The position numbers were made by a program, and so were the translations under genes. A DNA stretch of 63,186 bases, counting the filler, from Globobulimina sp. (lineage: Eukaryota), in NCBI GenBank assembly GCA_003354225.1. It is 10 parts of 10 records of this genome, joined end to end, with 100 filler letters (N's around TTAATTAATTAA, not from the genome) between each part and the next. Parts side by side here need not be neighbours in the genome. Positions count along the whole stretch, not along the records: positions 38,020 to 44,245 come from PIVH01000337.1; 9 more parts are not named here. The stretch is one strand, 5' to 3'. Under the pieces are notes generated by a model. It was not told the origin of the DNA. It did not search any database and saw nothing but the letters and a program-made list of their open reading frames with translations. Numbering within the stretch: the first letter of the stretch is position 1; each line of letters starts with the position of its first letter. This document shows, one piece after another, positions 4,767 to 63,186 of this stretch.

Positions 4767-5534
4767 ATGGCAAATGAGCAAAAAGAGCAACTACAAATAA
4801 TCGGTGCTGGGTTTGGCCGAACCGGCACAGAAAGTTTACAACTCGCATTAAACACATTAGGATACAAATGCTATCATATGCATGAATTAAGCAAATATAA
4901 TGATAGCCATATTTGGTATGATTTATTATCGAAACCAAAAGAGAAACGGAATTGGAATCAATCAATATTTGCAAAACGTGGATATTCAGCAACTGTGGAT
5001 TGGCCCACCACTGCAATTTATCAAGATTTGTTAAAAGAAAATCCGTCGGCAAAGGTCATATTAACCATAAGAGATACACCCGAACAATGGTTCAATTCGG
5101 TGCTAAATTCCATTTATAAGTTATCAACATCGCACCGCTGGTGGCAGTTCAAATTATTATCGCGGTTTGATTCAGATCTATACAAACACGGCAAAGTCGT
5201 CCATGAGTTAATATGGGACGGTGTATTTGATGGGAGGTTTTCAGAAAAGGAGAGATCAATAAAAATATATTCGAAACAGATTGAAGATGTTCGAAAAACT
5301 GTTGCAAAAAATAGATTATTAATTATGAATGTTAAGGAAGGATGGAAGCCATTGTGTAAGTTTTTAAATAAAGAAATTCCAAAAGATTTGCCATTCCCGA
5401 GAGGCAATACAACTGCGGACAAAAACAAAAAATATCAACGATTGGTAGCAATGAAAAATAAAGTAAATGCTTTTTTTGTTGTGTTGTTTATTATTGTTGT
5501 TGGATGCTTATATAAAGTATTTACACAAACATAA
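4767..5534 (+). CDS. P-loop sulfotransferase-family protein with C-terminal TM anchor
   Basis: IIGAGFGRTGT..LG.KCYHM, VDWP, KVILTIR, EGWKPLCKFL..PFP motifs and a hydrophobic C-terminus. Confidence 0.85.
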   Translation: MANEQKEQLQIIGAGFGRTGTESLQLALNTLGYKCYHMHELSKYNDSHIWYDLLSKPKEKRNWNQSIFAKRGYSATVDWPTTAIYQDLLKENPSAKVILTIRDTPEQWFNSVLNSIYKLSTSHRWWQFKLLSRFDSDLYKHGKVVHELIWDGVFDGRFSEKERSIKIYSKQIEDVRKTVAKNRLLIMNVKEGWKPLCKFLNKEIPKDLPFPRGNTTADKNKKYQRLVAMKNKVNAFFVVLFIIVVGCLYKVFTQT

Positions 5535-37863: not shown

Positions 37864-38019
37864 GCTTTGTAGGTGATATTTCACTGAAAAATTTACTTCA
37901 AAATAAAATTAAATAACTCNNNNNNNNNNNNNNNNNNNNNNNNNNNNNNNNNNNNNNNNNNNNTTAATTAATTAANNNNNNNNNNNNNNNNNNNNNNNNN
38001 NNNNNNNNNNNNNNNNNNN

Positions 38020-40895
38020 CCAATCCTTGGTGAAAAATCATTAAAATTGTTGCAAATTCTTGCGATTCTAATTAGTTGTGTATAGAAGACTCTGTATCCC
38101 ATAGATGTATGTACATTACTGTTTGCAAATCCATATCTCACCACATAAAAATTGAAGTCATCCGTTTTGTTATACACTGCAATTCTATGTTTATCAGGGT
38201 TAACACATACCAATATATCAAGGAAACAACTTTCATATTTTGACTTAGCTGTGTTTTCTAGTGGTAAGCAGTTTGGATAAATAAGTTTAGCATGTTCTAG
38301 GAAGTTATCACAATTAATTGAAAGAATGTCATCTATATACCTCATTGTATGGCTCATTGATTTGGCTATCGTTTTGTTATTAATGTCTGTAAGAAAGTCA
38401 TATTCCAGCATACTTAATACAAGGTCTGCAATTAAAGGACTAGCATTGCCTCCCATAGGTACACCACATATTTGTTTAAATAAGAAACCGGCAAATTTAA
38501 CGTATGTTTCATCAATAACATTGTTGATAAGGCATTTAGTGTCAATGTTGTCTAGCATTGCCATATAACTACCTTTTACTTGGTCAGCATAATATACATT
38601 ATTGTAAGTAACAATTACATATTTTTTGTTAGCATGTCCAAATAGCAAATCAACAAGTTTGAACAACTGTTTTTTAATAATTTCATGAGGAAACATTGTG
38701 TATAGAGAACTAAAATCAGCGGTACATATGCTTTGCAATTGGTTAGCTTGAACTTTATGTTCTATTTTTCTATGTGCTTCCAGACTACCTTTGATTGACC
38801 AGTAACAATTATGTCCTTTCCTTTTGCTAACTATAGCACAGTATTTTTCAAAGTGTTGTTGAAAATGTGCTAAAACTCGATGTAATATTCTTGACATTGG
38901 CTTGGTTGATGAGTTACGAGCACCTGCTATAAATCGGAATTTGTATGGATTTTTATGCAATTTGGGTGTTGCGAATATAACAGGAAGCTTTTCGTCATCT
39001 GTTTCAAATTTAATAAGTCCTGTTTGTGCTGTAAGAAGTTTATGTTTATCAATAAGTTTACTTGCATCAATGTCACATGGTTTATAAACATCATTACCTA
39101 TTACAGTACAGGTTCCGTTATTATCCGTTTTAACACCAAGTTCCTTACACATAATTTCTATATAATATTTTTTACAAATAAAAATAAAGTTATTGCTTGC
39201 TTTATCTGCTGGTGCAATGACAAACTCATTCTGTAAATGCATTAATTCCCTTTGACTATCTTCGAGTGACAAACAAGAAACCATTCTTGTATTTCTAATA
39301 TTCTTTGACAAAAATTTTATTCTATTATCAATGATATTTACATAAAGCCCTTTGTATTCCTCTGTAGCCATAGTAACATCAACATATCTTCGAATTTTTG
39401 CAAATGTCTTCTTTATATATTCATCAACAACTTCCATAGCCACTTTTCTAACTTCTGTCCAATCAAATGATTTTGGCTCTCGAAACTTAGCTCCCTTACC
39501 AAAAAGTTTTCTGAGTTTTATATCATTAATGATATTTAGATCACCTGTAATAACATGCCCACATTGACTATAAACGTATTTAGAAGTTGAACAATTACAT
39601 TGTTTATTTGCAAAATTATTTAAATCATTATTTTGCAGCGTTTTTAATGTTTTATTATAATTGAACAATTTACGACTAATAGGTGTTTCATATTTATATG
39701 TAATAATGGGTAAATCGGATTTTTTATTGTTAATTGAAATTGTTTTTTGCAATCTTCTGTCCTTGAAAATGGTTTCTAGTTTAAGTAATTCAATACCCTT
39801 ATTTGGATATCTAGCAACAACAATAACTCCTTTAGATTTATTGTTGATTTTATTATTATAACCATAATATCCAGCCATAAATGCTTGTGTTGCAAGTTTT
39901 GCATCTCCATGCCAATGATCCAGGTTACCAGTTTGAATGGTTTGATTAACGAACAGTAAATTCTTTTTTGACATTGATCGTAAGAATATGTAGAGTTTCC
40001 GTCTATCAAAAAAGCCATTTGAGCAATCAATATTATGTTTAGTTTTATTGATGATATCAGGGTCAAGTTTCTTTGCTGTTCGTTTCTTCTTTCTGTTTCT
40101 ATTTCTTCTTGTAGATGGTAATGGTTTAGTGAAGTAAGGTTGTGTTGATTTAGATGCAGGGTCAATTCCGCATGACACATCTCCGTAGCTTTTGATTCTA
40201 TCATTCATACCATAAGGAAAAGCAGTAATCAATTGTCGAATCCAAAAATCTTCATTATTTTCACATTCCTTTCTATTTTTTATTTTATCTGTAGATATAG
40301 GTGTAGATTCTATAATCTGCACTTGTAGGTCATTAACATTATGTCCACTTTTATTAAAATGCTGTACTAAATAAGTATTTGTTTCATTTTTCTTGATAGA
40401 ATATACATGTTCAGCAATTCTCTCTTTAAGTTTTCTAATAGTTTGTCCAACATATTGCAGTTTACATTTTTGGCATGTGATAAGGTAAACAATGTTTTTA
40501 GTATTACAATTTAATTGTACTTGATCTGTACATGCTATATATTTGCTATTAGTGATAGTGCAATTTATATGTTGTTTTTCTTTGATGTATTTGCAGCAAC
40601 TGCATCTATTTCCATTGCATTTTTCTGTATAGTTATTAGTTGTATTATTATCATATATTTCGGGAATACAATTACATTTATTATTTTGATTAGTTTGTTT
40701 GGTGAATATAAAACAAGCTCCTTCCAAAAATCTTCTTGGATGACTAGAAGATACACTTTGACTAGCACTCAGTCCATCCCACATAGCATGTGCCCCGGCA
40801 CCACTGTGAAATGAAGGTGGTGTTACGGAGGGTTCACCCCCAGTGATTTTAGAACCCATCTGGGGAAAAGGGCCGGTCTCTGATTGTACTTCCAT
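38020..40895 (-). CDS. PLE GIY-YIG endonuclease-reverse transcriptase (continues at 44126-43970; 1010 aa total if the first ATG is used)
   Basis: CNTKNIVYLITC..C..QYVGQT...L.ER..EH, E.FWI..L....PYGMN; ADKA, PKLHK, ADFSSLYT, GVPMGG, RYIDD, FLD. Confidence 0.95.
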
Positions 40896-41170
40896 TGTTT
40901 GATTAATGGTGGAATAAAATTGTCAAGATGAATGAAACCAGGTATTGGACAAGAGTCAATAGGTCAAAACAAAATATTTGACTTAAGTATATTTAAAGAA
41001 AAGATGAATTAGACAAATTATCTGACTAGATGTCAGTAATAAATTACTGACTCAGAGTATTATTCTATTTACAACGGAAGGAGAAATACTATAGACATTG
41101 ATATGTAAATTTGTATGGAACTTATAACTATATGTGAGTTTATTTGGAAATAGATGTAGTTTATTAGATG

Positions 41171-41480
41171 ATAAGACCACTGCCATAAGACACTGTAATA
41201 AGACAATAAATAAGAACACTGTCGACAGACAGTAATAAGACCACTGTCGAAAGACAGTAAACAAGACCACTGTCGAAAGACAGTAAATAATACCACTGTC
41301 GAAAGACAGTAATAAGACCACTGTCGAAAGACAGTAAATAAGACCACTGTCGAAAGACAGTAAATAAGACCACTGTCAGAAGACAGTAAATAAGACCAAA
41401 TGATAATGATGCTAATATCATATGCGAAACATTAGACCACTGTAAAAGACAGTAATAAGACACTGTCCAAAAGACAGTAA
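41171..41480. repeat. Tandem ~25-bp hairpin repeats (AAGACC-ACTGTC-GAAA-GACAGT-AAT)
   Basis: About 6 near-exact central units plus degenerate flanking units; the intact units carry a 6-bp inverted repeat. Confidence 0.9.
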
Positions 41481-41771
41481 AACTAATATTTGAATAAGAA
41501 TGCCAATAAAAGTATCTGGAATCTTGAATGCAAATCAAAATAAAATTTCGAAGAATTTGTTTTGTCGAAAAAAATTGAAAATACGACGAAAATTAGCCGA
41601 TTACGATTTAGTTACAGTACCCTATGCTTAACCATTGGCCCTGATATTTGTGATAAGCAGGGGTCTTGAAACGAAAATATTGGCGAAAAATTTAAATTTT
41701 TTCATCAATATTTCAACAATACGTATCAAAACCTAATTTTTATCACAAAATCACATTTATGCTAGGCCAAG

Positions 41772-43575
41772 TTATGGTTTTTCATATTCGGAGGGGTTAG
41801 AGGGAAATTCTTTATAATGCTTAGCTGCAAGATCTCCTATAGCCATCTTGTTGTAACCAACGAATTTTGCTTTAATGCCAGCATTTTTATATGCTTCGAC
41901 TACAACATTTCTCTTTTTCTTCTCTTGTTGTTCCATGTATGGTAAATCATTTTGAACTGATACATTTTTGAATTTTTGGCCTAACCCTGAGCATGGAGCC
42001 CATTGCTGTAAAGTTTTCTTAAGTGACATAATGTAACCACGATCAGAACGACGAGTAAAGGCAACTATAAATCCAACTGGAAGCTCATGAATAACATCAA
42101 TGTGCTGGAAGATTTTCTCAACGATTTCTGGATTCATACGAAGACCATCTATACAGAGGAATCGAAAGACAGATTCATAATCATTTGTGGTAATCTTCTC
42201 TTCTTTGAAAAGATAATCTTTGTCGAGACCGAAGATACGGATATTATGACCTCGTGTGACTTTTTCCAAACCATGTATCAATTGATCATGTTTATCCTGA
42301 ACTTCATGGACCTCCTTAACCTCAGTTTTAACACGTTTGATTTCCTGTTCCAACAATTGTATGCGTTTAGTGTTCATGGCAACCTGTAAGATTTGTAAAT
42401 GGTTTTTATTATAGTTATGGTGTAAAAGCAAGTGTATAAGATAATTTTTAGTTGCAACAATGTATAAAAACAATAAATCTGGTATGACATGTGACTGATT
42501 GTTTGTTATATAACATTTTAAATGTATAAAATAAGAATTTTAGGATTGTGCAGTAAATGTGAGTAAAAGTATAACTAAAATGGTATTTTATATATATGGA
42601 ATTTAAACTTGTATTATATAATTGCTAATTATGTTAGGGACTATATGTGAATTAATGTAGTTTGTACAATATATTATAGTGTGTGGGAAATGGCTTGAAT
42701 GGTATAGTGAAAGTAACAAATTATAGTTAATGAATATTGTTATAAAAAATTTTAACAAAATTTTTATATTATTTTTGGCGTAAAATGTATGAATTATAAT
42801 TATTTAACATAAAATTTAAACTTATAAAGTATATAAAGTTAAAAAGAGGATTTTACTTTTGATAGGTGAAATAGTAACTAATATATGTATTTTAATTTTA
42901 TATGATGAGTAAAATATGTTTGTATAGTGTATATTAAAGTTAAAAAATAGTACAGACCATCCACCCCTATTGGGGTCGATGTTCTGTACTATTCAGAAAA
43001 AACCCTTTTCGTTGTTATAGTTATGACTTATATACAATTTTTAAACGAAATATAGTAACACTAAATGGCTGCTTGACAGTCTAAAATTAGAACTGATAGA
43101 TAGTATATGACACTAGGAAACAACTGGATTATGATATTGTTTAACAGCGAAAAGCTAGCTAGTTACCTTGGAGCGGGCAAGCCTCTCCTCACAAGGGCCA
43201 GCTAGTGATAGTAATAAAATTATATTAAGTGAAAACCAAATAAAAAGGCTATATTTTAAAAAATTATGGAAATCCGTCCCAGTACAACTACCTAAGGCAA
43301 TTTTACTCCTATCTGAATCAGGTTTCGGTCCATTAGTTATCTAGACCTGATACAGTGCACTGGACAGGGGGACCTCGTCAGTAGACAACCTGCCAGGCTT
43401 CTTACCTAAGTACTCAAAGGAATAAAAAATGACTAAGTAAATGCAGTAAAATCTACTCTCAAAAATTAGGGCAAAAAACATTATTTAAAAAATTATAAAT
43501 TTACTTAACCTCAATTTGTGTTGTTACCTCTTCATCTTCTTGAGTCTCCTCTCTAGGACGCTTGGAATGGGGCAT
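41772..43575 (-). CDS. L1 ORF1p-like (coiled coil + RRM-like) protein, 225 aa; exon 43575-43510, putative intron 42384-43509, exon 42383-41772
   Basis: Coiled coil, then R.HNIRIFGL, IDVIH, FIVAF..RSD and VSVQNDL....KKR, as in transposase_22/ORF1p. The upstream exon MPHSKRPREE..IE joins in phase 0; that splice is inferred. Confidence 0.65.
43317..43389 (-). ncRNA. Hammerhead ribozyme, non-circularly permuted; predicted cleavage after GUC (between 43344 and 43343)
   Basis: Minus strand reads GTTGTCTA-CTGACGA-GGTCC-(18 nt)-ATCAGG-TC-TAGATAAC-TAAT-GGACC-GAAA-CCTGAT. Full core with stems I (8 bp), II (5 bp) and III (6 bp plus the core A-U). Confidence 0.8.
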
Positions 43576-43750
43576 TATACAATGTTTTAAGAGACCAAAG
43601 AAATCAGTGAAATCAGAGAAAATAAAAATAAAATAAAAATTTTACGTTTCTCAGCCCGAGTGCCTCAGCACTCTGACTTATATTTTTTGATCTGAAAACA
43701 ATTGAAATTCTAGTACTTGTTATCCATATATTTTAAACAGGTTATTTGTA

Positions 43751-43827
43751 TAAAACCACTGACAGAAGTCAGCAATAAGACCACTGACATAAGTCAGTAA
43801 TAAAACCACTGGCAGAGCCAGAAATAG
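43751..43827. repeat. Three hairpin repeat units related to the 41171-41480 array
   Basis: ACCA-CTGAC-agaa-GTCAG, ACCA-CTGAC-ataa-GTCAG, ACCA-CTGGC-aga-GCCAG. Confidence 0.8.
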
Positions 43828-43969
43828 ATGTATACTATGTAAAGTTTCTGAGTTAAAGTTTTTTTATTATGTTTTCAGGTCAAATTAGTTTGATTTGATA
43901 CTGAGACTTTTTACTCTTAGCCTATTTATTGCACTTTATATTTGACGCTAGGATATTGACCGCGCCTTG

Positions 43970-44245
43970 CTAGGCAATATGAGAAATACAAAAATTGGCA
44001 ATTTTTTGTTTATTATCAAGTTTGAATTTTAGCAATAATGTACTGTAAATGGTGGCAAATTTATAAAATGTATGATATAAGCTAGCTTTACTATAACCAT
44101 TTTTAAGCAAAGTATGTATAAGCTGTCCAATCCTTGGTGAAAAATCATTAAAATTGTTGCAAATTCTTGCGATTCTAATTAGTTGTGTATAGAAGACTCT
44201 GTATCCCATAGATGTATGTACATTACTGTTTGCAAATCCATATCT
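43970..44245 (-). CDS. C-terminus of the PLE RT ORF (wrap-around)
   Basis: Overlaps 38020-38138 exactly; ends ..LLKNGY..CISHIA*. Confidence 0.9.
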   Translation of the reverse strand, partial: RYGFANSNVHTSMGYRVFYTQLIRIARICNNFNDFSPRIGQLIHTLLKNGYSKASLYHTFYKFATIYSTLLLKFKLDNKQKIANFCISHIA

Positions 44246-49585: not shown

Positions 49586-50665
49586 ATATTTAGTACTATT
49601 TAATATTTTAAAGCAGATTAGTTTCATTTTTTTGGAGATATTGAGGGAGTACCAGTACTAATATATGTTAATTGTGATATAAATATTTTGTCTGACATCG
49701 CCTGATCCATTGATAAAAGCATCCCAATGTTCATTAAATTTATTTCAATTTACAAAGCGAATTATTCGGGTTTTGATATGAATATATTTTGGGGCACGGC
49801 GAGCTGTGCCATTGATACGCATAATATTGACAAGAATGCGTCCGCGGCCGATATAATATGGTAGCACCCCAATACTGCGTAACAATGACAGTTCGTCTGG
49901 ATCCGGAACCGCCTGTAATATTTTCCTAGGGAATGAGAGCAAATCAGGCAGCTATTATTCATTGACTAATGATGAGATCTCCACCATTTACAGCAATAAC
50001 ACGGCCACACTCTATTTAGGCGATAGGTTAGCGTATTCCAGCGACGTTTCGTCCATGTTTATCTATGGTTTGCATTTGCAAGCATCCGTTTGGTCCAATC
50101 TATAAATTTTATCATTATGCACAAATAAGAGTTAAATTATTTTCAATGACACTGAAAACATATTTAATTCAATGAATGTTAATTTCTATTCAAATGGAAA
50201 TATTTTATTATTCCCAGCAGCATCGGTACATTTAAATGGTACACCTGCAAATTCTTTATTAGTGTAAACAAATTATAATTGTAATAATATAAATAATCTG
50301 GTGGCTCAAATGTAAGATATTATGGAAATGCCTCATATATTAATGCCTCGCAATCAATAATCACAGTGTCCGAAAGATGCTCAACAAGTTATTCAATGTT
50401 GGTGTGCGGCCCAAATGACAGAACAGCGGCAAATAATACATATGCAATGACATGATTAAACAGTGAGTTGTCTTCATTATATTCATCATCGGTTACATTT
50501 GATTCTTATTCTGGTTCAAATTATGTTGCTGGCTTTGAGCAATCAATTGATATGAATGGCACTGCNNNNNNNNNNNNNNNNNNNNNNNNNNNNNNNNNNN
50601 NNNNNNNNNTTAATTAATTAANNNNNNNNNNNNNNNNNNNNNNNNNNNNNNNNNNNNNNNNNNNN

Positions 50666-53600
50666 CTTAGATGTAGAAATATTCTCTTTTTGACCGGGTC
50701 TCTATTTATATTTGTATCCATCAATTCTTCTTGATACGGGAATAGCAGTTTGAATAAAAGCTCTTCATTCGTTACTTGTTGATACATCTCATCAATTGCA
50801 ATAATCTCCGCTTTCAATACCAATCTCTGATCGGTATACTTATCACATATACAAATAAAGTGATAGATATCTTCAACTATTTCCACCTGCTTCTCCATTT
50901 TGCAGTGATCACAGTTTCTCGTTTTTGATCCATACTTTCTCTGTCCATTCAACGCAGTGTGTCCAGAACGAAGTTGTGCCACAAATTTCCATTGTTTCCT
51001 CCGTAATGCTTTCATTTCAAACTTATAAGCATCAATGTATCGAATATTCCAATCAATCAGATTCTTACTTAGTATTTGCTCCTCATTTTTTACTTTCTTC
51101 TTTCTTAAATCTTTGTGCTTCTCCCAATCATTCAATGTGCTATAAAATCCTTTACGTTTATTTTCTTTTTTTATAGCAGTATAGCTATAATTATCCCATT
51201 CGTGATTTGTAAATCGTTTCTCAATTTCATTCCATTCCATAGTCCGATAAATATCGAACATGCCTGCTTTCGCCATATCGTCCGCTATCTCATTACCTAT
51301 CTCGTTATTATGTGCCTTAACCCAAATTAGATGAACATCCATCCCGTAATCTTCCAAATCCATTATCAATCGGTGAATAACTTTGATCTTCTCATAAATT
51401 ATTACATTTTTTATCTCATAACACCCCGCAATCCAATTTACCACCGTCTCATTATCAATAATGACACAAACATCGTCCGGTACTAAGTCCGGATCTCTCT
51501 CATAAATATCAAAACAATATCGATATAATGCCCCCAATCCTTTTTCAGCTGCATCCAATTCACAGTGATCAATTGAGCTCCTTAGACCCGTTGAAGAAGC
51601 GCCATAGTAATAATTACTAAGTCCGTTATCATACGGACCTTTTAATTGTTTGTAATTCCTAATTCGTAGAGCTTCTAAATCAGCTGTTTTCAAATAATAA
51701 TCCAAATTACACGACCAATAACCCGCACCGCCATATCCATCCTTATTTGATCCATCAGAGAATAATAATTGTATCTTCTTTTTATTTGCTTGTTTTAAAT
51801 CTAATGGGTTGCTGTCATAATAAAATAAATTATCCGACCACTCTTTCACCCATTCTTTATCAAACGACATTTTTTCGTCTTTTTCATTCCTCAAATAACA
51901 CAATAAATTCTTTGGTGATATTAATCTCTTCAAATGATACGATAATCGCTTTGGCACCACCTCATAACTGACATTTTTCATAAACTTAACATCCGAATTC
52001 TTAATATTTGCCGCAGCATCAAATAATTCAAAAAATAGATGATATCTTTTCTCAAATTTCTTCCTAAATCTATTCTTTTTCATCGTTTTCTTATTTTTAT
52101 ACTCCTCGCCTTCTTCCTCATTATTAACAAACTCCCAATCATCGCTCAAATCGTTCCTGTACATTTTATTGCTAATTTCTATTTTATTCGCATCGAATGT
52201 ATCTATTTTGTGATCCAATTTCTTTGTTTGTTTCTGCTTAAACTGATCATTCAAATCTAACCTCTCATCATTCCACATTTTCCAATATTTCTTCTCAATA
52301 ATTTCGCTTAAAATGTTTGTTTTTGGCGACCTAATAATTCTCGACCAGAATGACGATTTTCTGGACGCGACTAAATAATCAAAGCCTGTCTCACCAATTT
52401 GAACCAATTGCCAATTGACAGGGTTCGTCTTTTCAGAATAATTTGAATGCCGAATTGTGTCATTGAACAGCGATCTCAGTTTCGCTGCTAATCCATGTTT
52501 GGAATCATACCAAATTTCCGCAGCATATAATAATTTTGGATAAATTAATGCTTTATAGATATTTACTAACTGTCTCGCGATGAGATCCGATGCATATTTA
52601 TATCTCTTAAATATATTCAAAAACGATCGTCTTCCATTTACAATGACTGACTGAAACTGAGCGTTCCAGTTTAAATTCCAATCAATCCATACTCCCAAAT
52701 ATCTGACTTTGTTGAATATCTTCGTAATGGGTTGATCGCCCATTTTTAGCTCAAAGTATAGCTGTTTGTGGATCGCATTATTGACTATAACTGCAATCAC
52801 CATATAATTCTGTTTTATTGGTTGCAGAAATAGCCGTTTTTTCTTCGCCAAATACGATACGTAATCTACTGCAAATTGAAGATTCTTTCTTAGCTCATCG
52901 CCACTGACTGACCCGTCCGATGCCATCGTATTGTCGTCAGCGTAGGCAATGATTAGTATACCTATTTTTAGTCCATTTATCGCATCAAATTCTATAGTAA
53001 TAAATATGAATATAATGGGTGAGGGCGGCCAGCCTTGCGGCACTCCACAAATATCTTGCCTCCATTTACAATAAAATCCATATATTTTAACTCGGCCCCA
53101 TCTATATTCCAATGCCACATATAAGTAATCCAACGCAAATCCATTAATACCAATATTAATCCGCATACACTCGATAATAATTTTATGCTGCAATGTATCA
53201 AACGCAGCTTTAAAATCTATAAACAAAACATGCGTATTCTTATTATTTATTCTATTGTTCCAAATAATCTCCGTAAGATAGGCAATGGTGTCGGTGCAGC
53301 CTAACCCTTTGACGAAACCAAAGTGTCTGGGTTTAATTATTCTCATTTTAATGGCGTATTTTAGGTACTTAGTCGCCATCCATTTGTCATACGGATTACT
53401 GCAGCTCGATAATAATGATACCGGTCTGTAGCTATCCATATACTTTGCCGGTTTATTTGACTTCAAAATCACTGTTATATCCCTAATATTCATTGATTTT
53501 TCTCTGATACCTAATATAAATAACGCATTATAACAGAGATACAATCCCTGTCTCAGAATTTCAATGCCATTTTGTAGCAATACGTAATTTGATCTGTCAC

Positions 53601-55599
53601 TGTTGCTCGCTTTCCCTTTTTTGAACGACATGATGAGCGGCTCAACGTCTCCAATATCTAAAATTGAATTTAATTCCTTCAGCTCGGCGATATGTGCATC
53701 AGTCCCAAAATTAGCTTTATTCTTCGCGTTATAATCATTTATAATTCTTTCAAACGCTTCATTTGTATCATTCTCATCGCTCTCATTCTCTATTTCATCG
53801 TCGTCGTATCTATGCAGATAAGACATATAATTCTTTGCTTTGTTAATTGATTTGACTGCGTTCGTTGTCCCATCCTTATTATACCAAACTGGAATGGATC
53901 TGGACGTATTATTATCATATTTTATGATATTATTGATTTGCGACCATGGCATCCTGCCATTGTTGCTGATATTTCTTATTTCATCCTTAATCCATGACTT
54001 TCGCCCCGAATCACATAAATCATCGCTAATTTTCTTTTTTTCAATCAATACCTCTTTCATTATCTTTTTTTTTCGTTTACTAAATGATCTAAATCGCTCT
54101 TTGTAGCATATATAGTCTTTGATGGCGTACTTCATTTCTTTCGTCATCCACGGCTTATCATTCCCGATCGTATTTTTCCTTAATCCTAAAATGTCAATCG
54201 ATGTGTCGACGATTCTGTGTTTAAAAAAGTCCGACACTGCATCTAAAATATCATTTGTTGACAGTCCAACAAAATCTAATAAATAATCTCTGTTAATGTC
54301 GCAATTTCCATTTCCATATGTTTCAAGATAACAATTTATTAATTTATTTATATCCTTTCCATAAATATCATGCCATTCTTCAACATTTTCAGATAACTGC
54401 TTCTTCCATTGATCCCAATCTCTGTCTGATCCAGTTCTAATCGTAAATTCTGGCGCCGGTTTTTCGTACAAATCTCCCTTTTTATAAAAGGAAAACAACG
54501 CTAAATGATCAGAATAATATTTTTCCGGGTCATCTCTCGTGAAATCTTCCGCCCAGAATTCCCAATCGTCCTCTTTTAGTTTATCATTTATAAAGGATAC
54601 ATCCGGCGAAGTCCGCTGCGTCTTTCGTTGCCTCGTTGCATGTTTATCGTTCAATATAATCCATTTATTCTCATAAATCCAATCCGCTAAAACTAAACCA
54701 TGCTTCTTTGCCTTTGAAGGCCTGATATAACCATCAAACCAGGCATTATTATGGGCGTTCATGTCACCCCCAACAAATATGGGAAATGTAGCGTAATTCT
54801 TTGTTTTTGAGAGCAATTCTAAATAATTTATTAATAATTCAATATTAGAGCCCGGTGCTCCATTCTGAGGCCGATAATAATTGTTTATAATAAACGCTTG
54901 TCCCATATCGTTGTTATATACTTTTAATGTCAAAATATAAATTTTCGACATCAACAATTTCTTCTTTCTATCCCTCCCATCTTCCGTACTGATATCCAGA
55001 TTTTCAATCCGTTTATCAATCTGCGCATTGTGCTTAAAATTCAAATTTATTCGTTCGTAATGAATACCATTCCGAATTAAAGTGACTATTTTTCCAAATC
55101 CTTTCTTTTTCGTTATAACTGTGGTATAATTCTTTATTTTTACTGTCCATTCACTCTCATCGTCATCGTAGAATTTATATGGTTCCTGCAATAGAAAAAT
55201 ATCTGGCTTCTTAGTCAAAATTATATAATGAATATGCGAGCGCGCATTGACCGTAAATCCGTCAACATTCCATTGACAAATCAGGAGACCTTCCTTGCGC
55301 ATTAATAATGATTCATTTTTTAGTTCGTATTCACATTCAATTTCATCAAAAATAGGATCAAATTCATTCATCGATAGATTCAAATCAACGGTATTATGAT
55401 TGATACCATTTAAACCTTGATTATTCGACTTAAAATCTTGTTTTTCTTCAAATTTCGTACAATCGAAAGCTGCGATATTACCCAAACAAGGATATTTATC
55501 GTAGCTACACTTCTCATCTAAAACAATACCATCATCGCAAGAGAAGTCATTGCGATGACTACTTAAATGACTGTGTGTTTGCTTGGGGCCATCCATCAT
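50666..55599 (-). CDS. ORF2: APE endonuclease, reverse transcriptase, RNase H, Cys/His motif
   Basis: QWNVDG, LQEP, GDMNAH, SDH; YRPVSLL, DFKAAFD, GVPQG, YADD, YLGV; SDGS, E, DN, WVKAH, GNEIADDMAK; LRSGH..C..C..H...C. Confidence 0.95.
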
Positions 55600-56880
55600 A
55601 AGTTATAGTTGTTGGTGGATGGTGGCCCGTTATTATTATTTTTATCTGGTTTATATTGCTCAATTCCTGTCAGTTTTAGGTCGCCATTCTTCAGCCGACC
55701 AACACAGCCATTTCCAACGAGTTTGTTTACTATTTTTTCATTCCAATTGCAATACGTCAACATACGACGGGCCTCATCGTAGGTGATTTTTGCACTCGTT
55801 TGCGTTTGTATATTATTTATAAATGCGCTAATTTGCATTTCTTGTTGATTTTGTTTAAACACATCTGCATTAAATGTGCTTTTACTATGATCATCATCGG
55901 ATTTCTCATCGTTGTTTAACAGTGCTGTACTTGCACTAATTTCGTTATTTGCATCCGATTGCTGTGTAAAACTCATTGTTGCTGTAATATTTTGATCCGT
56001 TTCTCGATTTGATTGGCTATTAAACATATTCGTATCCAAATCATTTTGCTCATTTTGAGATGTTTCAAGATTTAATTCGCCCAATAAATCGTCAATAATG
56101 CTTTGTTTATACTCATTTAACGAACCATTCCAGTCCGCTACGATTGCATTCCAGTCCATAAGTAATAGTTCGCCATTTTCATTCATTTTAAACCTATTCT
56201 TCAATTCTGTTAATATCTCATCACAAAAATCTTGCGATTTGATATCCCAAATCAATAATTTCTTACTGCCAACCTCCAGCTTCTGCTCATTAAAATTTTT
56301 TAATTTCATCTCATTTGTCCATGACTCGCGTTTTTTTCTCGGTGAATTTGGCGCAAACAATGTCCAATACACTCGCTGCCCTGCACTTGATGGGATATTT
56401 TGTTCCAACCAATTTAAGTCAATGCGGCCGGACGACGTTAATAAAAGTGACTGACTGATTTTCTTTGAAATGTCACCAAATCTCTCGCACGTAATTTTGT
56501 AGCCGTTGTAATTATTTGTCACTGCCTGTAATATCTCTCGCGCCGTAACATCGTCTTCGTAGGTTCTAGAATCATAGAATTTAGCTGAAATAAATGCATT
56601 ATTGCATACAAATTTTGATAATTTGGGGGCATCATATCTTCGTCGACTAATATTTATATTGAAATCTGCTCCGAGTGTTTTCCCAAAGGCATAGTCCCTT
56701 TGGACCCTATATCTCTTCAACTGATTAAAGATTTGCCTCACTAAAACAACAAATTCCTCCACACAATAAATAGATGAGTCTGCGATGGCATATCTGTCAT
56801 TATCCCACGAAAATGTTAATTCCGCAAATTTATCTCCGCAATTCCTCCTTCTTCCTTGACCCCTACACCATGCTTTTAAC
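55596..56880 (-). CDS. ORF1 of the non-LTR element (5' truncated)
   Basis: Long ORF whose TGA overlaps the ORF2 ATG (ATGA). Confidence 0.7.
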
Positions 56881-59404: not shown

Positions 59405-62400
59405 ATGGAAGCGTTAGATTTTTTTACCAATCAATTTGGATTTTTAACGCCATTGTTATTGCCTTGGTTGCAAAAACTATGTCGTGATTCAGCAGAAGAA
59501 CAATTGCGTGTATTATTTGAAACCGAACTCGCGACACCATTACAATTGCTGTCATGCAGTAATTTTTCATATCGGTACATTCGTTTGAACATAATACCGC
59601 GTTTAATCTCATTCATCGAAAGCATTGAGATAGGCTCAGATATATATTTTCGTAATAAGTTATATAAATTTTTTTATATTCAAATCCAAGAAGAAGAAGA
59701 CGCAGAAAAGAAAGAAAAAGACATTGCGTTAGGAACTAAGTTACAGAGCAATAAAATCGACAGAAATGAACTAAATAACATCGAATTAAATGGTCGCATA
59801 TTTGAACTATTATTAAATGACATTTTAACAGATTTATTCTTCAACTTCAACGCATACAATATTTTACCCATTGAGCGGATGCAGATAATCCAATACATTC
59901 GGTGTCTAATCTATGAATGCGAGAAAAATATAAAACAAAACAAATCTGAAATAAACCTACAAAAATATTCTGGCTTAATTTGTTGCAATTTACTATCCAT
60001 TTTGAACGACGAATATGCGGCAGAATGTGTCTGCGATTCGGAGGACACAAACTTGTCAAACTTCAAAGTGTTCACAGACATAATCAACGAAAACAACGTC
60101 CAATTTCCCATTCTCAAAAACGAAAAGGAAAACATCGAAATCCATAATGAAAAATTACAACGAAAACTGAAACAACAACAACAAAATATGGCCAACAACA
60201 ACACCGGTCCATCCATGCAATCCATGCATACGCCGTATTTATCACATAACCAAAATTCAGCCGAAGCAATGCGTCAAATCCCACACACTCCGCACATTTC
60301 GGGGATGTACAACGACCAACTTAACGACTGGAAAATAGATGGCGTCGACCCCGAGAATGACATGAATCAGAAACAGATACTACGGGGACAAATGTACAAA
60401 ATTGATATGATCCAAGAAGACCACGAAGAGGATACTATCGACAGCCAGTTGAAATTAAAAGTATCAACCCCCAGACGGCAAACTGTCTCATTTGCGCCGA
60501 CCATCAACACCGCCAACAGTCAGCCTCCACCACCGCCGCCACCGCCTCATTTAGGCACTAAAAAGTCGCAGAGCGTGGATATAAACAACACAGTAAACAC
60601 ACCGCAATTATTCAGCCAAGTGCCGCCACCTCGCTCTGCTCAGTCCGCAGCATACAACAATAATAACTTTCCGTATTCAAATAATAGCAATGCTGCAGCT
60701 GAGGTACGCCCATTAAAACGGCAAAACTCACATCCTCATCCTGCACAGCAGCAATCTGTGGAACGCATCCATTTGCCGCCGGCACCGCCGCCACCCATTG
60801 AAATAGGCACACAACAGAAGTCATTGCCGATTACAATGCATAAAAACTATAACAGCACGCAATCATACGACAGCACCAAAAACGTAAACATCGACACGCC
60901 GCTTATTAATGTAACTACGCCGTACGGATATAACTTTAATCAGAGCACTCGTATCCAGCCCCCAGCGATTACCACCTTCGAAACGCCCAATGAATTGGCC
61001 ACTGGCTTGACGAAGACGCAGTTCTTCGCCAAATACCTGATCGACTCTAAAATCATTGGCCAGGGCTCTTTTGCAGTGGTACGGCGATGCAAACGCGTCA
61101 CTGACGAACGTATATTGGCGATGAAGATTATAAAGAAAAAGAACATCGACGAGGATGCCGATATGGAACTAATCCGTCGAGAGATTACCATTTTGATCGA
61201 GTTGGACCATCCGAACGTGATCCGGGTGTATGATTGGTGTGAGACCAATTCGCGTCTGTTTATTGTGTTGGATTATTGCGGCGGCGGCAATGTCTTGGAT
61301 CGCATTATCAAAAAAGGCAGTTTTAGCGAGTTTGAAACGGCGCAATTAATTCGAGAGTTAGCTATTACCATTCAATACTATCACAGCAAAGGAGTGGTTC
61401 ATCGGGATTTAAAAGTAAGTATACAGCCATTTCATTTGTTTTCTGCATGTTTTTCAAATTAAAAACAGATTGAATCACTTTAAACAGCCCGAAAACATCA
61501 TGTATTTGGACGATAATTACTCACAAATGAAACTCATCGACTTTGGTATGGCGAATACATTGAAAAATGTAAAGGGTCGCGAGCTAACCACGGCGTGTGG
61601 CAGTCCGCTCTACGCTGCGCCGGAGATCTTAAACAATGAGAAATATGGCACTGCGGTGGACGTCTGGAGTATGGGCGTGATTACATATTTATTATTGTGT
61701 GGCTTCCCGCCTTTCTTTGACACGCAAAATATAAAAAACGTCTACGCTTTGATTCGCAAAGCCAAGTTTTCTTTTCCTTCGCCATTCTGGGACCCGATTA
61801 GTGAGAATGCCAAGGATTTCATTGTCATGTGTCTGGAGTTGGATGTAGATAAACGATACACTGCGCAGAATGTGCTGAACCATGCGTGGATTGGCGGGAG
61901 TAACAAAGAGGACGATTTCTTGTATGATGACACTGAAACGGATACGAACGCGTTGCCTGACTTTGATGACAGTTCCAGCACAGATGACGACTTTGCCATT
62001 GATGAGGACGACGATGACATAAATTACGACCTGATCTTAGCGAAGGATAATGATATGATCGCGGATTTTAATGTGAACCCATTGCACGCCGTGAAAACCC
62101 CCAGAAAGAAGCAGCGAGTCAGCAATATCAGCACTGGTATCGGTGATGGTGGTGCCGGCGACATTGATTATGGCAAATTTAAGTTAAAACGTGCGCCGAC
62201 TGAGCCAGTCTTGAAGCATTTGAAGAGAACCAGTTTAGAGCCGGTATTAAAAGGGAAATACACCGGTCATGGCAGGAAAAGCAGTCTGTTGTACATGAAC
62301 CAAGGGACTATCTTCAGTGCACAACGCGATCACTTACAAAAACAAAAAACATTAATCGAGCAAGAACGGGAAGAGCTGACCGCTGAAACGAAGAAATTGG

Positions 62401-63186
62401 AACAGCAACGACAGGATTTATTGCAGCTATTGGATGAACACAATGAGTTTAAAAAAACAATGACTACATTCGAGCAACAAAAGGCTATATTTACACAGGA
62501 AAAGAACAAATGGTTAGCTGTGAAGGGGTCGGTGGAAGAAGAAAAGAAAAGATTGCAAACGTTGCAGCTATCCATGACAGAGCGGTACGAGGCAGAATTC
62601 GATAAGTTTGTGAATGAAACGCAAGAGCAACGGTTGCAACTTCAGGAAGAATATAAAAAGCTAAATGACGAACGCTTGGAATTTAAGCAGAAAAACGGCG
62701 AATTAGCTCAAGAGTTAGAAACGTTGCACGCGGAACGAGTGCAATTCGAAACGGACAGAAACAATTCGCTACCGACAGATATTCAGAAACTGCGGCAAGA
62801 TTTGGAAGGGGAATGGCTGAAAATCGCGTCGACCCAAAAACAGCACGAATCCGAGGCGAAGTCGCATGCGCAGACTAGCGTGAAATTGAAAAAAATGATG
62901 AATACTATGAGCAGAAAAGAACGTGAGATCGAGCAGGACCATAAGGAGCTGTTGGAGATCAAACAAAAGATCTTTGATTTGCAGGAGGAGAAAAAAGCAG
63001 AGCTGGAATTGGTGAAAAGCGATAAGTTCCATACTGTGCAAAAAGCGCAGATTATACAACAGCAGCGGGAGATGGACAAATTGCGGAGCGAGTTGGAAGC
63101 GGAGAAGGCGGAGTTTTATGCCGAGAACGTAGGGGATGAAGGCGATTGGAAGCAGAAATACTTTGTATGGTGCCCAAGTGAGTAGG
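59405..63186 (+). CDS. CaMK1-like Ser/Thr kinase with long N-terminus and C-terminal coiled coil, 3' truncated (intron 61415-61487)
   Basis: IGQGSFAVV, AMK, HRDLK/PEN, DFG, CGSPLYAAPE, DVWSMG, LLCGFPPF. Confidence 0.92.

Follow-up and report, generated by a model that had tools for sequence, protein, structure and literature searches.

A candidate two-gene Penelope-like element of Globobulimina sp. with an L1 ORF1p-like gene and a predicted type-CSG hammerhead ribozyme

Results

Features of the locus

We analyzed a 63,186-nt stretch of DNA from Globobulimina sp. (GenBank assembly GCA_003354225.1), referred to here as the window, and found in it one unit of a Naiad-type Penelope-like element (PLE). 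Upstream of the gene for its GIY-YIG nuclease and reverse transcriptase (RT), the unit carries a second gene, ORF1, whose product resembles ORF1p of the long interspersed nuclear element (LINE) LINE-1 (L1). The window consists of about 10 unrelated contigs, sorted by length from 6243 down to 6206 nt, with spacers of N44, 12 nt and N44 about every 6.3 kb. Open reading frames (ORFs) that enter a spacer, such as 37968..40895, are artefactual at the spacer end, and the true genomic context of the two genes is the piece at 38020-44245 (6226 nt) only. The two ends of this piece, 38020-38138 and 44127-44245, are 100% identical, a terminal overlap of 119 nt; the piece therefore holds a unit of 6107 nt assembled head to tail. 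The sole public run containing the unit, X1 (stored as contigs), has a contig of depth 18 that bridges 44126 to 38020. The piece is the collapsed unit of a tandem, head-to-tail or circular element. ORF1, the putative exon 1 and intron, the hammerhead and the RT gene are all on the minus strand, as follows.

38020-44245, minus: Naiad-type PLE unit, 6107 nt plus the 119-nt overlap, defined by the map of N runs, the terminal identity and the joint-spanning public contig
43750-43816, minus: tandem array of a hairpin-forming 25-nt unit, 2.7 copies, some 175 nt upstream from the ATG of exon 1 (Tandem Repeats Finder)
43510-43575, minus: coding part of putative exon 1, 22 codons (MPHSKRPREETQEDEEVTTQIE), with a KRPR plus acidic motif like a nuclear localization signal (NLS), and an alternative end at 43528 (sequence and comparison)
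42384-43509, minus: putative GT-AG intron, 1126 nt, which holds the hammerhead (sequence and an analogue in another locus)
43317-43390, minus: predicted type-CSG hammerhead with stems I of 9 bp, II of 5 bp and III of 7 bp and the core CUGACGA...GAAA (descriptor scans)
41772-42383, minus: exon 2, the L1 ORF1p-like body, 203 codons and a stop (homologues, profile search, fold)
about 42380-42252, minus: coiled coil of the exon 2 protein
about 42251-41994, minus: RNA recognition motif (RRM) of the exon 2 protein
about 41966-41829, minus: C-terminal domain (CTD) of the exon 2 protein
41185-41398, minus: tandem array of a 26-nt unit, 8.3 copies, with a 6-bp hairpin in each unit, in the spacer between ORF1 and the RT gene (Tandem Repeats Finder, self-BLAST)
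38020-40895, minus: residues 1-958 of the RT ORF, with the N-terminal GIY-YIG nuclease, the CxC and ADKA motifs and the RT (translation, Pfam, 96 homologues)
43970-44126, minus: the last 52 codons of the RT ORF and its stop TAG (43972-43970); an ORF at 43970..44209 repeats the RT C-terminus (terminal overlap)

An L1 ORF1p-like protein

ORF1 extends from ATG 42377 to the stop at 41772 and encodes 201 aa. An earlier note, made from the sequence alone, had described here a coiled-coil and RRM-like ORF upstream of and co-oriented with the GIY-YIG-RT ORF (ATG 40895), and had likened it to L1 ORF1p; both claims were borne out. A word-indexed search returned 3 relatives at 52-69% identity. When 1.84 billion representatives were searched exhaustively with HMMER, there were 21 matches at E <=1e-3, of which one, a protein of 4799 residues, was excluded. 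Several of the homologues are encoded on contigs of 4-6 kb. Since homologues were found, the ORF is not a product of chance. PDB searches with the single ORF1 protein or with a set of 4 sequences gave coiled-coil noise only, and scans of metagenome and genome contigs with ORF1 patterns did not find relatives. When a 22-member family profile was compared with PDB, it matched human LINE-1 ORF1p (2YKP, E 1.3e-9; 2YKO, E 1.8e-9) over profile positions 6-175. It also matched 2LDY, an RRM-CTD construct that is free of the coiled coil (E 4.2e-5, positions 49-175), so the match is not a coiled-coil artefact.

The AlphaFold2 (AF2) model of ORF1 (pLDDT 76.9) had a helix of 43 residues, then a beta-alpha-beta-beta-alpha domain and after it another alpha/beta domain. 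The 10 best PDB matches of this model in Foldseek were exclusively L1 ORF1p chains; nine were chains of the trimer, whose alignments spanned 189-199 columns with E 3.1e-5 to 3.5e-4, and the tenth, 2LDY, had E 1.5e-3. The top 5 matches in VIA were also L1 ORF1p entries (Z 9.2, 8.2, 8.2, 7.7 and 7.7), and generic RRMs reached 6.7 at most. The alignment at Z 9.2 covered 164 residues, and one at Z 8.2 covered 139 residues at a root-mean-square deviation of 4.9. A predicted complex of three copies scored 0.78, compared to 0.00 for the best of 3 controls, a result that may reflect likeness to the solved L1 trimer. The predicted trimer is a parallel, in-register heptad assembly through residues 4-43, with contact agreement between runs of at least 98% and partner pLDDT of at least 83. 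The mark used for this score was reached by 21/30 proteins solved as one-chain pairs and by 0/23 solved as single chains; on eukaryotic proteins it was reached by 17/29, and by 1/7 among those without an older solved relative. Taken together, the profile matches and the modelled fold indicate that the ORF at 42377-41772 encodes a true homologue of L1 ORF1p with a coiled coil, an RRM and a CTD.

The order of these three domains is that of LINE-1 ORF1p as seen in 2YKO, 2YKP and 2YKQ (trimer), 2LDY (RRM-CTD) and 2W7A (RRM). LINE-1 is also alike in having its ORF1 gene upstream of the RT gene and in the parallel in-register trimer, which for the window protein is a prediction. In contrast to LINE-1 ORF1p, the coiled coil of the window protein is short (about 43 residues) and its N-terminus would lie on a separate, putative exon. 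The element itself differs from LINE-1 in its partner enzyme, a GIY-YIG/PLE RT rather than an APE/LINE RT, and in the long spacer of 876 nt from the ORF1 stop to the RT ATG. In a protein atlas, ORF1 was nearest to unnamed eukaryotic clusters (Cnidaria, Arthropoda), some of which had Baculo_FP_2nd in 55-60% of their members (score 0.91); baculovirus FP-like and ORF1p-like proteins may be related.

A Naiad-type nuclease and RT gene

The RT ORF lies downstream of ORF1 in the same orientation. It begins at ATG 40895, passes through the joint to continue from 44126, and stops at 43970 (unit position 276), for a total of 1010 aa. Within this single ORF, Pfam placed GIY-YIG at residues 134-184 (E 3.4e-6), on the N-terminal side of the RT, and RVT_1 at residues 647-860 (E 4.3e-5) with 23.8 bits, which is under its cut-off of 29.6 bits. 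Across 17 aligned relatives, the linker C93-x4-C98-xx-C101 and the nuclease residues C141, C144, H163 and H179 were invariant or nearly so. C433 and C435 of the motif KQCNCS were invariant in the same alignment, as were A563, D564 and K565 of the motif APADKA, in which A566 was nearly invariant. The search yielded 96 RT homologues, the nearest 42% identical; most were on contigs of 3-7 kb, and some were labelled as proteins of bacterial metagenome-assembled genomes. A scan of viral contigs for RT relatives found none.

Craig, Yushenova, Rodriguez and Arkhipova (2021, PMC8557442) characterize Naiads by an N-terminal endonuclease (EN), a CX2-5CxxC linker, a CCHH motif, a CxC motif and a change of DKG to DKA. 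They report the linker and the CCHH nuclease motif in Naiads and not in Chlamys. By its sequence, the window RT gene has these Naiad hallmarks: GIY-YIG N-terminal and RT C-terminal, CX2-5CxxC, CCHH, CxC and DKA. The assignment is made through the features described in PMC8557442, our own tree being one of anonymous metagenome loci. The tandem, pseudo-LTR layout and the contamination of metagenome bins by eukaryotic sequence are also shared with the Naiads of that paper. However, Naiad bodies there measure 3.4-4.4 kb and are without a canonical hammerhead, whereas the window unit measures 6.1 kb and has a permuted one. The window unit also has the ORF1p-like gene and, within the pseudo-LTR, a putative coding exon; the portion of PMC8557442 considered here does not speak of an upstream ORF in Naiads.

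Linkage of ORF1 to the RT gene

We fetched 87 Naiad-RT loci with the RT alignment, 27 from genome contigs and 60 from metagenome contigs, and searched them in six frames with the ORF1 profile. Loci are given by L numbers where they must be told apart. The profile matched 3/87 loci (L001, L002 and L020, the last frameshifted); in each of them the match precedes the RT in the same orientation, with ORF1-to-RT spacers of roughly 420-480 nt. The RTs of these three loci, which come from 2 other assemblies, are just 34-40% identical to the window RT. The earlier note had asked whether related RTs have the same neighbouring gene, and these three do. Seven loci combined a nearly full RT with 800 nt or more of upstream sequence; ORF1 was present in 3 of the seven and absent from 4 (L010, L026, L050 and L051). 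A quick maximum-likelihood tree built from 56 RT rows placed the window, L001 and L002 together in one clade of 17 rows (SH-aLRT 94), within which the ORF1-bearing rows were not monophyletic. Outside this clade were the four loci that could be tested and were without ORF1. L020, which is without the part of the RT used, is not in the tree, and the test for ORF1 does not extend to the other 12 members of the clade. A fourth ORF1-like copy, L091, was seen in the genome behind L002; it is on a 1.7-kb contig without an RT, has an in-frame stop and is uninformative.

Depth along the unit, a comparison also called for by the earlier note, was similar for ORF1 and the adjacent RT. Exact-match contigs of X1 had depths of 10.3 over ORF1, 9.7 over the intron, 7.0 over the spacer, 11.7 over the N-terminal part of the RT, and 18 over the RT end and joint. 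The recurrence of a co-oriented ORF1p-like gene upstream of diverged Naiad RTs, together with the similar depth, supports the gene being an integral part of the element. The earlier note had read the element as a bicistronic PLE with a captured RNP-forming protein; the unit may be bicistronic, and the gene may have come from a LINE.

A LINE was observed in a separate contig of the window, at 50614-56309 (minus strand), with a 1661-aa ORF for an APE-type endonuclease and RT (50614-55599) preceded by a 237-aa ORF. As a donor of ORF1, this neighbouring LINE was rejected: its 237-aa ORF is unrelated to the PLE ORF1p-like family (hhalign probability 0.5%).

Exon 1 and the putative intron

Upstream of ORF1, the earlier note had joined a 22-codon exon in phase across a 1126-nt GT-AG interval to give a 225-aa product. 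The sequence facts are as it gave them, and L002 provides comparative support. The GT is at 43509-43508 and the AG at 42385-42384, both exon edges are in phase 0, and the predicted spliced product has 22+2+201 = 225 aa. The exon 1 frame bears SKRPREETQEDEE. With another in-phase donor, GAG|GTAACA at 43528|43527, exon 1 would have 16 codons.

In L002, the stretch from the RT stop to a hammerhead-like motif contains a 37-codon frame with ...SSRKRPRDDGYDLEE... (RKRPRDD...EE), whose end is CAG|GTAGAT. At the L002 acceptor, tttgcatag|ATC, exon 2 begins in phase 0, and there is no ATG ahead of the coiled coil. The putative L002 intron is about 640 nt long and, like that of the window, has phase-0 borders, at the coiled-coil start in both loci, and contains the hammerhead-like motif. 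Positions 1-90 of L002 repeat 5008-5097 and diverge thereafter; the intron of L002 therefore spans the junction of pseudo-LTR and body. Three ORF1 relatives with contiguous N-termini (P0011, P0012 and P0018) have a KRP motif there (SRKRPADDE, RRKRPAEP or PRKRPATEE). Among 8 hammerhead loci, only the window and L002 had a mini-ORF with a KRP motif in the interval from the RT stop to the ribozyme. These data support the 22-codon exon and the 1126-nt intron by comparison with L002; splicing itself is predicted.

Upstream of ATG 40895, the 9 codons that are open contain no phase-0 AG through which exon 1 could join the RT frame, and in-phase splicing of exon 1 onto the RT ORF was rejected.

In Penelope of D. 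virilis and in Chlamys-3_cRei, the transcription start site (TSS) is in the pseudo-LTR, and an intron crosses the boundary between pseudo-LTR and body and is kept in genomic copies (PMC8557442). The window element would be alike in having an intron over this boundary, with a TSS position that we infer. Those introns, of 75 bp and 398 bp, are in the 5'-untranslated region, whereas the window intron would have 1126 nt, follow a coding exon 1 and contain a ribozyme.

A type-CSG hammerhead in the putative intron

The earlier note had also placed a ribozyme inside the putative intron. Its location stands, at 43390-43317; however, the motif is not a canonical hammerhead, and its permuted type-CSG form had been missed. 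Read from 43390 to 43317, the motif begins with the 5' side of stem I, CUGACGA, the 5' side of stem II, an 18-nt linker, the 5' side of stem III, U and C17. Cleavage is predicted after C17, between 43344 and 43343 (GUC|U). The 3' side of stem I, a short linker, the 3' side of stem II, GAAA and the 3' side of stem III follow the cut. This C-S-G order of blocks is a non-circular permutation and agrees with the published RNAmotif descriptor order (Eckert et al. 2023). Rfam gave nothing at gathering thresholds over the whole window, and no hammerhead family over 43200-43500 even at E 10, as is to be expected, since a permuted order with pseudoknots is beyond what covariance models can encode.

A strict descriptor matched 6 sites in 290 kb (the window unit and the 87 loci, both strands), compared to a mean of 0.1 in 30 mononucleotide shuffles. 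With a relaxed descriptor that allows an insert after A9, there were 9 sites versus 0.95 in shuffles, and in the other 56 kb of the window the relaxed scan found no site. The sites were as follows.

Window 43317-43390 (minus): strict
L001 4365-4436: strict
L028 2787-2849: strict
L036 2925-2991: strict
L044 3798-3864: strict
L059 1691-1767: strict
L002 4934-5041: C-S-G variant with a 30-nt insert (relaxed scan)
L026 772-866 and 5330-5424: C-S-G variants with a 29-nt insert, in both pseudo-LTR copies (relaxed scan)

The 9 sites all share the strand of the RT and follow its stop by 278-938 nt. The stem sequences are different in each locus and the core is kept. Because the descriptor itself requires stems, and the sequences are 63-77 nt long and diverged, support for the hammerhead comes from the shuffle control, the strand and the position. 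The inserts of L002 and L026, two unrelated loci, lie between A9 and stem II and can be folded into two small hairpins.

Eckert, Friedrich, Weinberg and Weinberg (2023, PMC10085705) described the type-CSG set as 5 DNA sequences (2 unique) from soil metagenomes, of unknown biological context, and reported cleavage in vitro at 0.004 and 0.026 min^-1. Their ribozymes are alike in the C-S-G order with two pseudoknots, in all core nucleotides, in the short linker that joins stem I to stem II and in size (about 70-77 nt in total). Their descriptor fixes CUGAUGAG and a linker of at most 10 nt, whereas the window linker between stems II and III has 18 nt; for these two reasons the descriptor would miss the window ribozyme. 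Compared to that set, the Naiad sites are diverged: N7 is C, A or G, an extra U follows A9 in 3/6, and the linkers between stems II and III are longer. They also have a host, Naiad retrotransposons, in place of soil-metagenome DNA without known context. PMC8557442 describes Naiads as without canonical hammerheads and reports 'HHR_half_core' cases with core halves 35-50 nt apart; these are compatible with the type-CSG form. In the literature searched, type-CSG occurs in PMC10085705 only, and a 2026 preprint on PLE retrozymes is silent on it. We conclude from these scans that the intron ribozyme is a type-CSG hammerhead conserved in Naiad loci, for which self-cleavage is predicted.

Copy ends and repeat arrays

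In X1, the summed depth was 62 across 43220-43427, the ribozyme region, fell to 16 across 43012-43219, and was about 10-16 on the ORF1 side. Three X1 contigs had discordant loose ends at 43211, each continuing differently. The depth drop and the loose ends fit 5'-truncated copies and a 3' terminus of the element about 130 nt past the ribozyme cleavage site, within the intron. The junction between tandem copies is probably near 43211, inside the putative intron.

The two tandem arrays, one upstream of the ATG of each ORF, are about 79-80% similar. The array unit has an inverted repeat (ACTGTC..GACAGT versus CTGAC..GTCAG) in which pairing survives changes on both arms. These arrays of 25/26 nt could be promoter or enhancer modules, or hairpins bound by protein.

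Discussion

The locus is best explained, in our judgment with good though incomplete confidence, as a two-gene, ribozyme-bearing tandem PLE of the Naiad type. By analogy with Penelope and Chlamys-3_cRei, transcription would start in the preceding partial copy, the pseudo-LTR, where exon 1 would give the start codon and the NLS-like KRPR-acidic tail. Splicing would remove the 1126-nt intron, with the hammerhead and the copy junction, and yield an mRNA for the 225-aa ORF1p, whose body would be supplied by exon 2. Transcripts that are not spliced would self-cleave after C17 (43344|43343) into uncapped RNA of unit length, the presumed template. On such RNA, the conserved internal ATG 42377 would allow a shorter ORF1p to be made. 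ORF1p trimers would coat and chaperone the element RNA into a ribonucleoprotein (RNP), and the GIY-YIG nuclease/RT would copy the RNA into the genome.

A more specific composite can be offered tentatively, as a possibility about which we are more reserved. The Naiad subclade may be a mosaic of a LINE-type ORF1p gene, a PLE nuclease/RT gene and a type-CSG hammerhead, in which ORF1p takes its start codon and NLS-like tail from the preceding tandem copy and the intron bridging the two copies contains the ribozyme.

Several observations weigh against the two-gene, ribozyme-bearing reading. Pfam Transposase_22 was absent in single-sequence scans of ORF1 (up to E 1) and of 20 homologues (up to E 0.1), and ORF1 is only 12-18% identical to L1 ORF1p. 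Most Naiad loci do not have ORF1; most of their contigs are too short for the test, and 4/7 of those that are testable are without the gene. The insert of 29-30 nt may inactivate the hammerheads of L002 and L026. Cleavage by the published type-CSG examples is slow (PMC10085705), and activity of the Naiad sites is predicted from architecture. The spacer of 876 nt between the ORFs, with its repeat array, disfavours simple bicistronic translation in the L1 style. The donor GTTAAG fits the usual consensus, GTRAGT, weakly. The Met at the start of exon 2 (ATG 42377) is kept in 4/4 close homologues, so a start without exon 1 is possible. In L020, at 41-726, the ORF1 N-terminus is contiguous with the body (MPGASKRM..., rich in Arg and Ser) and there is no intron.

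The last three of these points bear on an alternative in which the ORF1p-like gene is real and borne by the element, and is functionally intronless. It would start at ATG 42377 (201 aa), the start that gene callers also choose, and the 22-codon frame with its GT-AG borders would be a coincidence or a non-coding leader. We regard this alternative as unlikely. L002 has no ATG before the coiled coil and has an upstream exon with the KRPR-acidic motif in phase 0; the KRP motif recurs in the contiguous N-termini of P0011, P0012 and P0018; and among the 8 loci the KRP mini-ORF is confined to the two whose acceptor lies where the coiled coil starts. The contiguous N-terminus of L020 resembles the start of window exon 1, and L020 may be an intron-less lineage or a copy of spliced RNA. 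Given the weak donor and the Met kept in 4/4 relatives, it is likely that the shorter protein from ATG 42377 is made as well.

The related arrays may mark two promoters, and ORF1 and the RT ORF would then be two transcription units with a promoter each, identified by the hairpin arrays at 43750-43816, some 175 nt upstream from the ATG of exon 1, and at 41185-41398, some 290 nt upstream from that of the RT. The length of the spacer between the ORFs, and the lack of a phase-0 acceptor through which exon 1 could join the RT frame, speak for this arrangement. However, the template RNA must hold both genes anyway, and we consider two units somewhat unlikely. It is far less probable, indeed highly improbable, that the ORF1p-like gene is foreign to the PLE, as a LINE fragment, a nested host gene or a chimeric assembly. 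Proteins of the ORF1p type are typical of LINEs, a LINE with APE and RT is present in the same assembly (50614-55599), and short-read assemblies of repeats can be chimeric. Yet gene order and strand are repeated in 3 other loci of 2 other assemblies with RTs at 34-40% identity, depth is equal along the unit, the contig has no APE or LINE RT, and the ORF upstream of ORF2 of the neighbouring LINE is unrelated.

Returning to the two-gene element, a close described parallel is Chlamys-2_cBra, a PLE of Chara braunii (PMC8557442), which likewise has an N-terminal EN, an extra upstream ORF for a nucleic-acid-binding protein and a 3' hammerhead. Its extra ORF bears a zinc knuckle of gag-like type (zf-CCHC), and its hammerhead has the canonical form, whereas the window element has a coiled coil-RRM-CTD ORF and a permuted hammerhead.

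PLEs with an EN (EN+ PLEs) are described as having a single ORF. A literature search that did not extend to subscription journals or Repbase reports found no L1-type ORF1p described in an EN+ PLE. An ORF1p gene kept in a Naiad subclade suggests that the RNP-forming module of LINEs serves another class of retroelement too, and the ORF1p-like protein is a tractable subject for studying how RNPs of PLEs assemble. If the pseudo-LTR supplies a coding exon, this would be a concrete functional reason for the tandem arrangement and the retained introns that distinguish PLEs. The type-CSG hammerhead gains a biological home and a diverged set from six loci, and the picture of Naiads, described as without canonical hammerheads, is revised. 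If the mosaic described above is correct, full-length ORF1p would come from tandem copies only, and each primary transcript would have one of two exclusive fates, splicing into capped mRNA or self-cleavage into unit-length template. Naiads would then not be free of hammerheads, and the two orphan type-CSG ribozymes of soil metagenomes would derive from such retrotransposons.

Other sequences in the window

The other pieces of the window encode an MFS transporter, a WD40 protein, kinases, a sulfatase and the LINE mentioned above, and the assembly is eukaryotic. At 59405-63185 (plus strand), a protein kinase domain is split over two adjacent ORFs, with profile positions 4-126 in the one and 133-263 in the other. 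An intron or a frameshift would account for the split, which fits a eukaryotic host.

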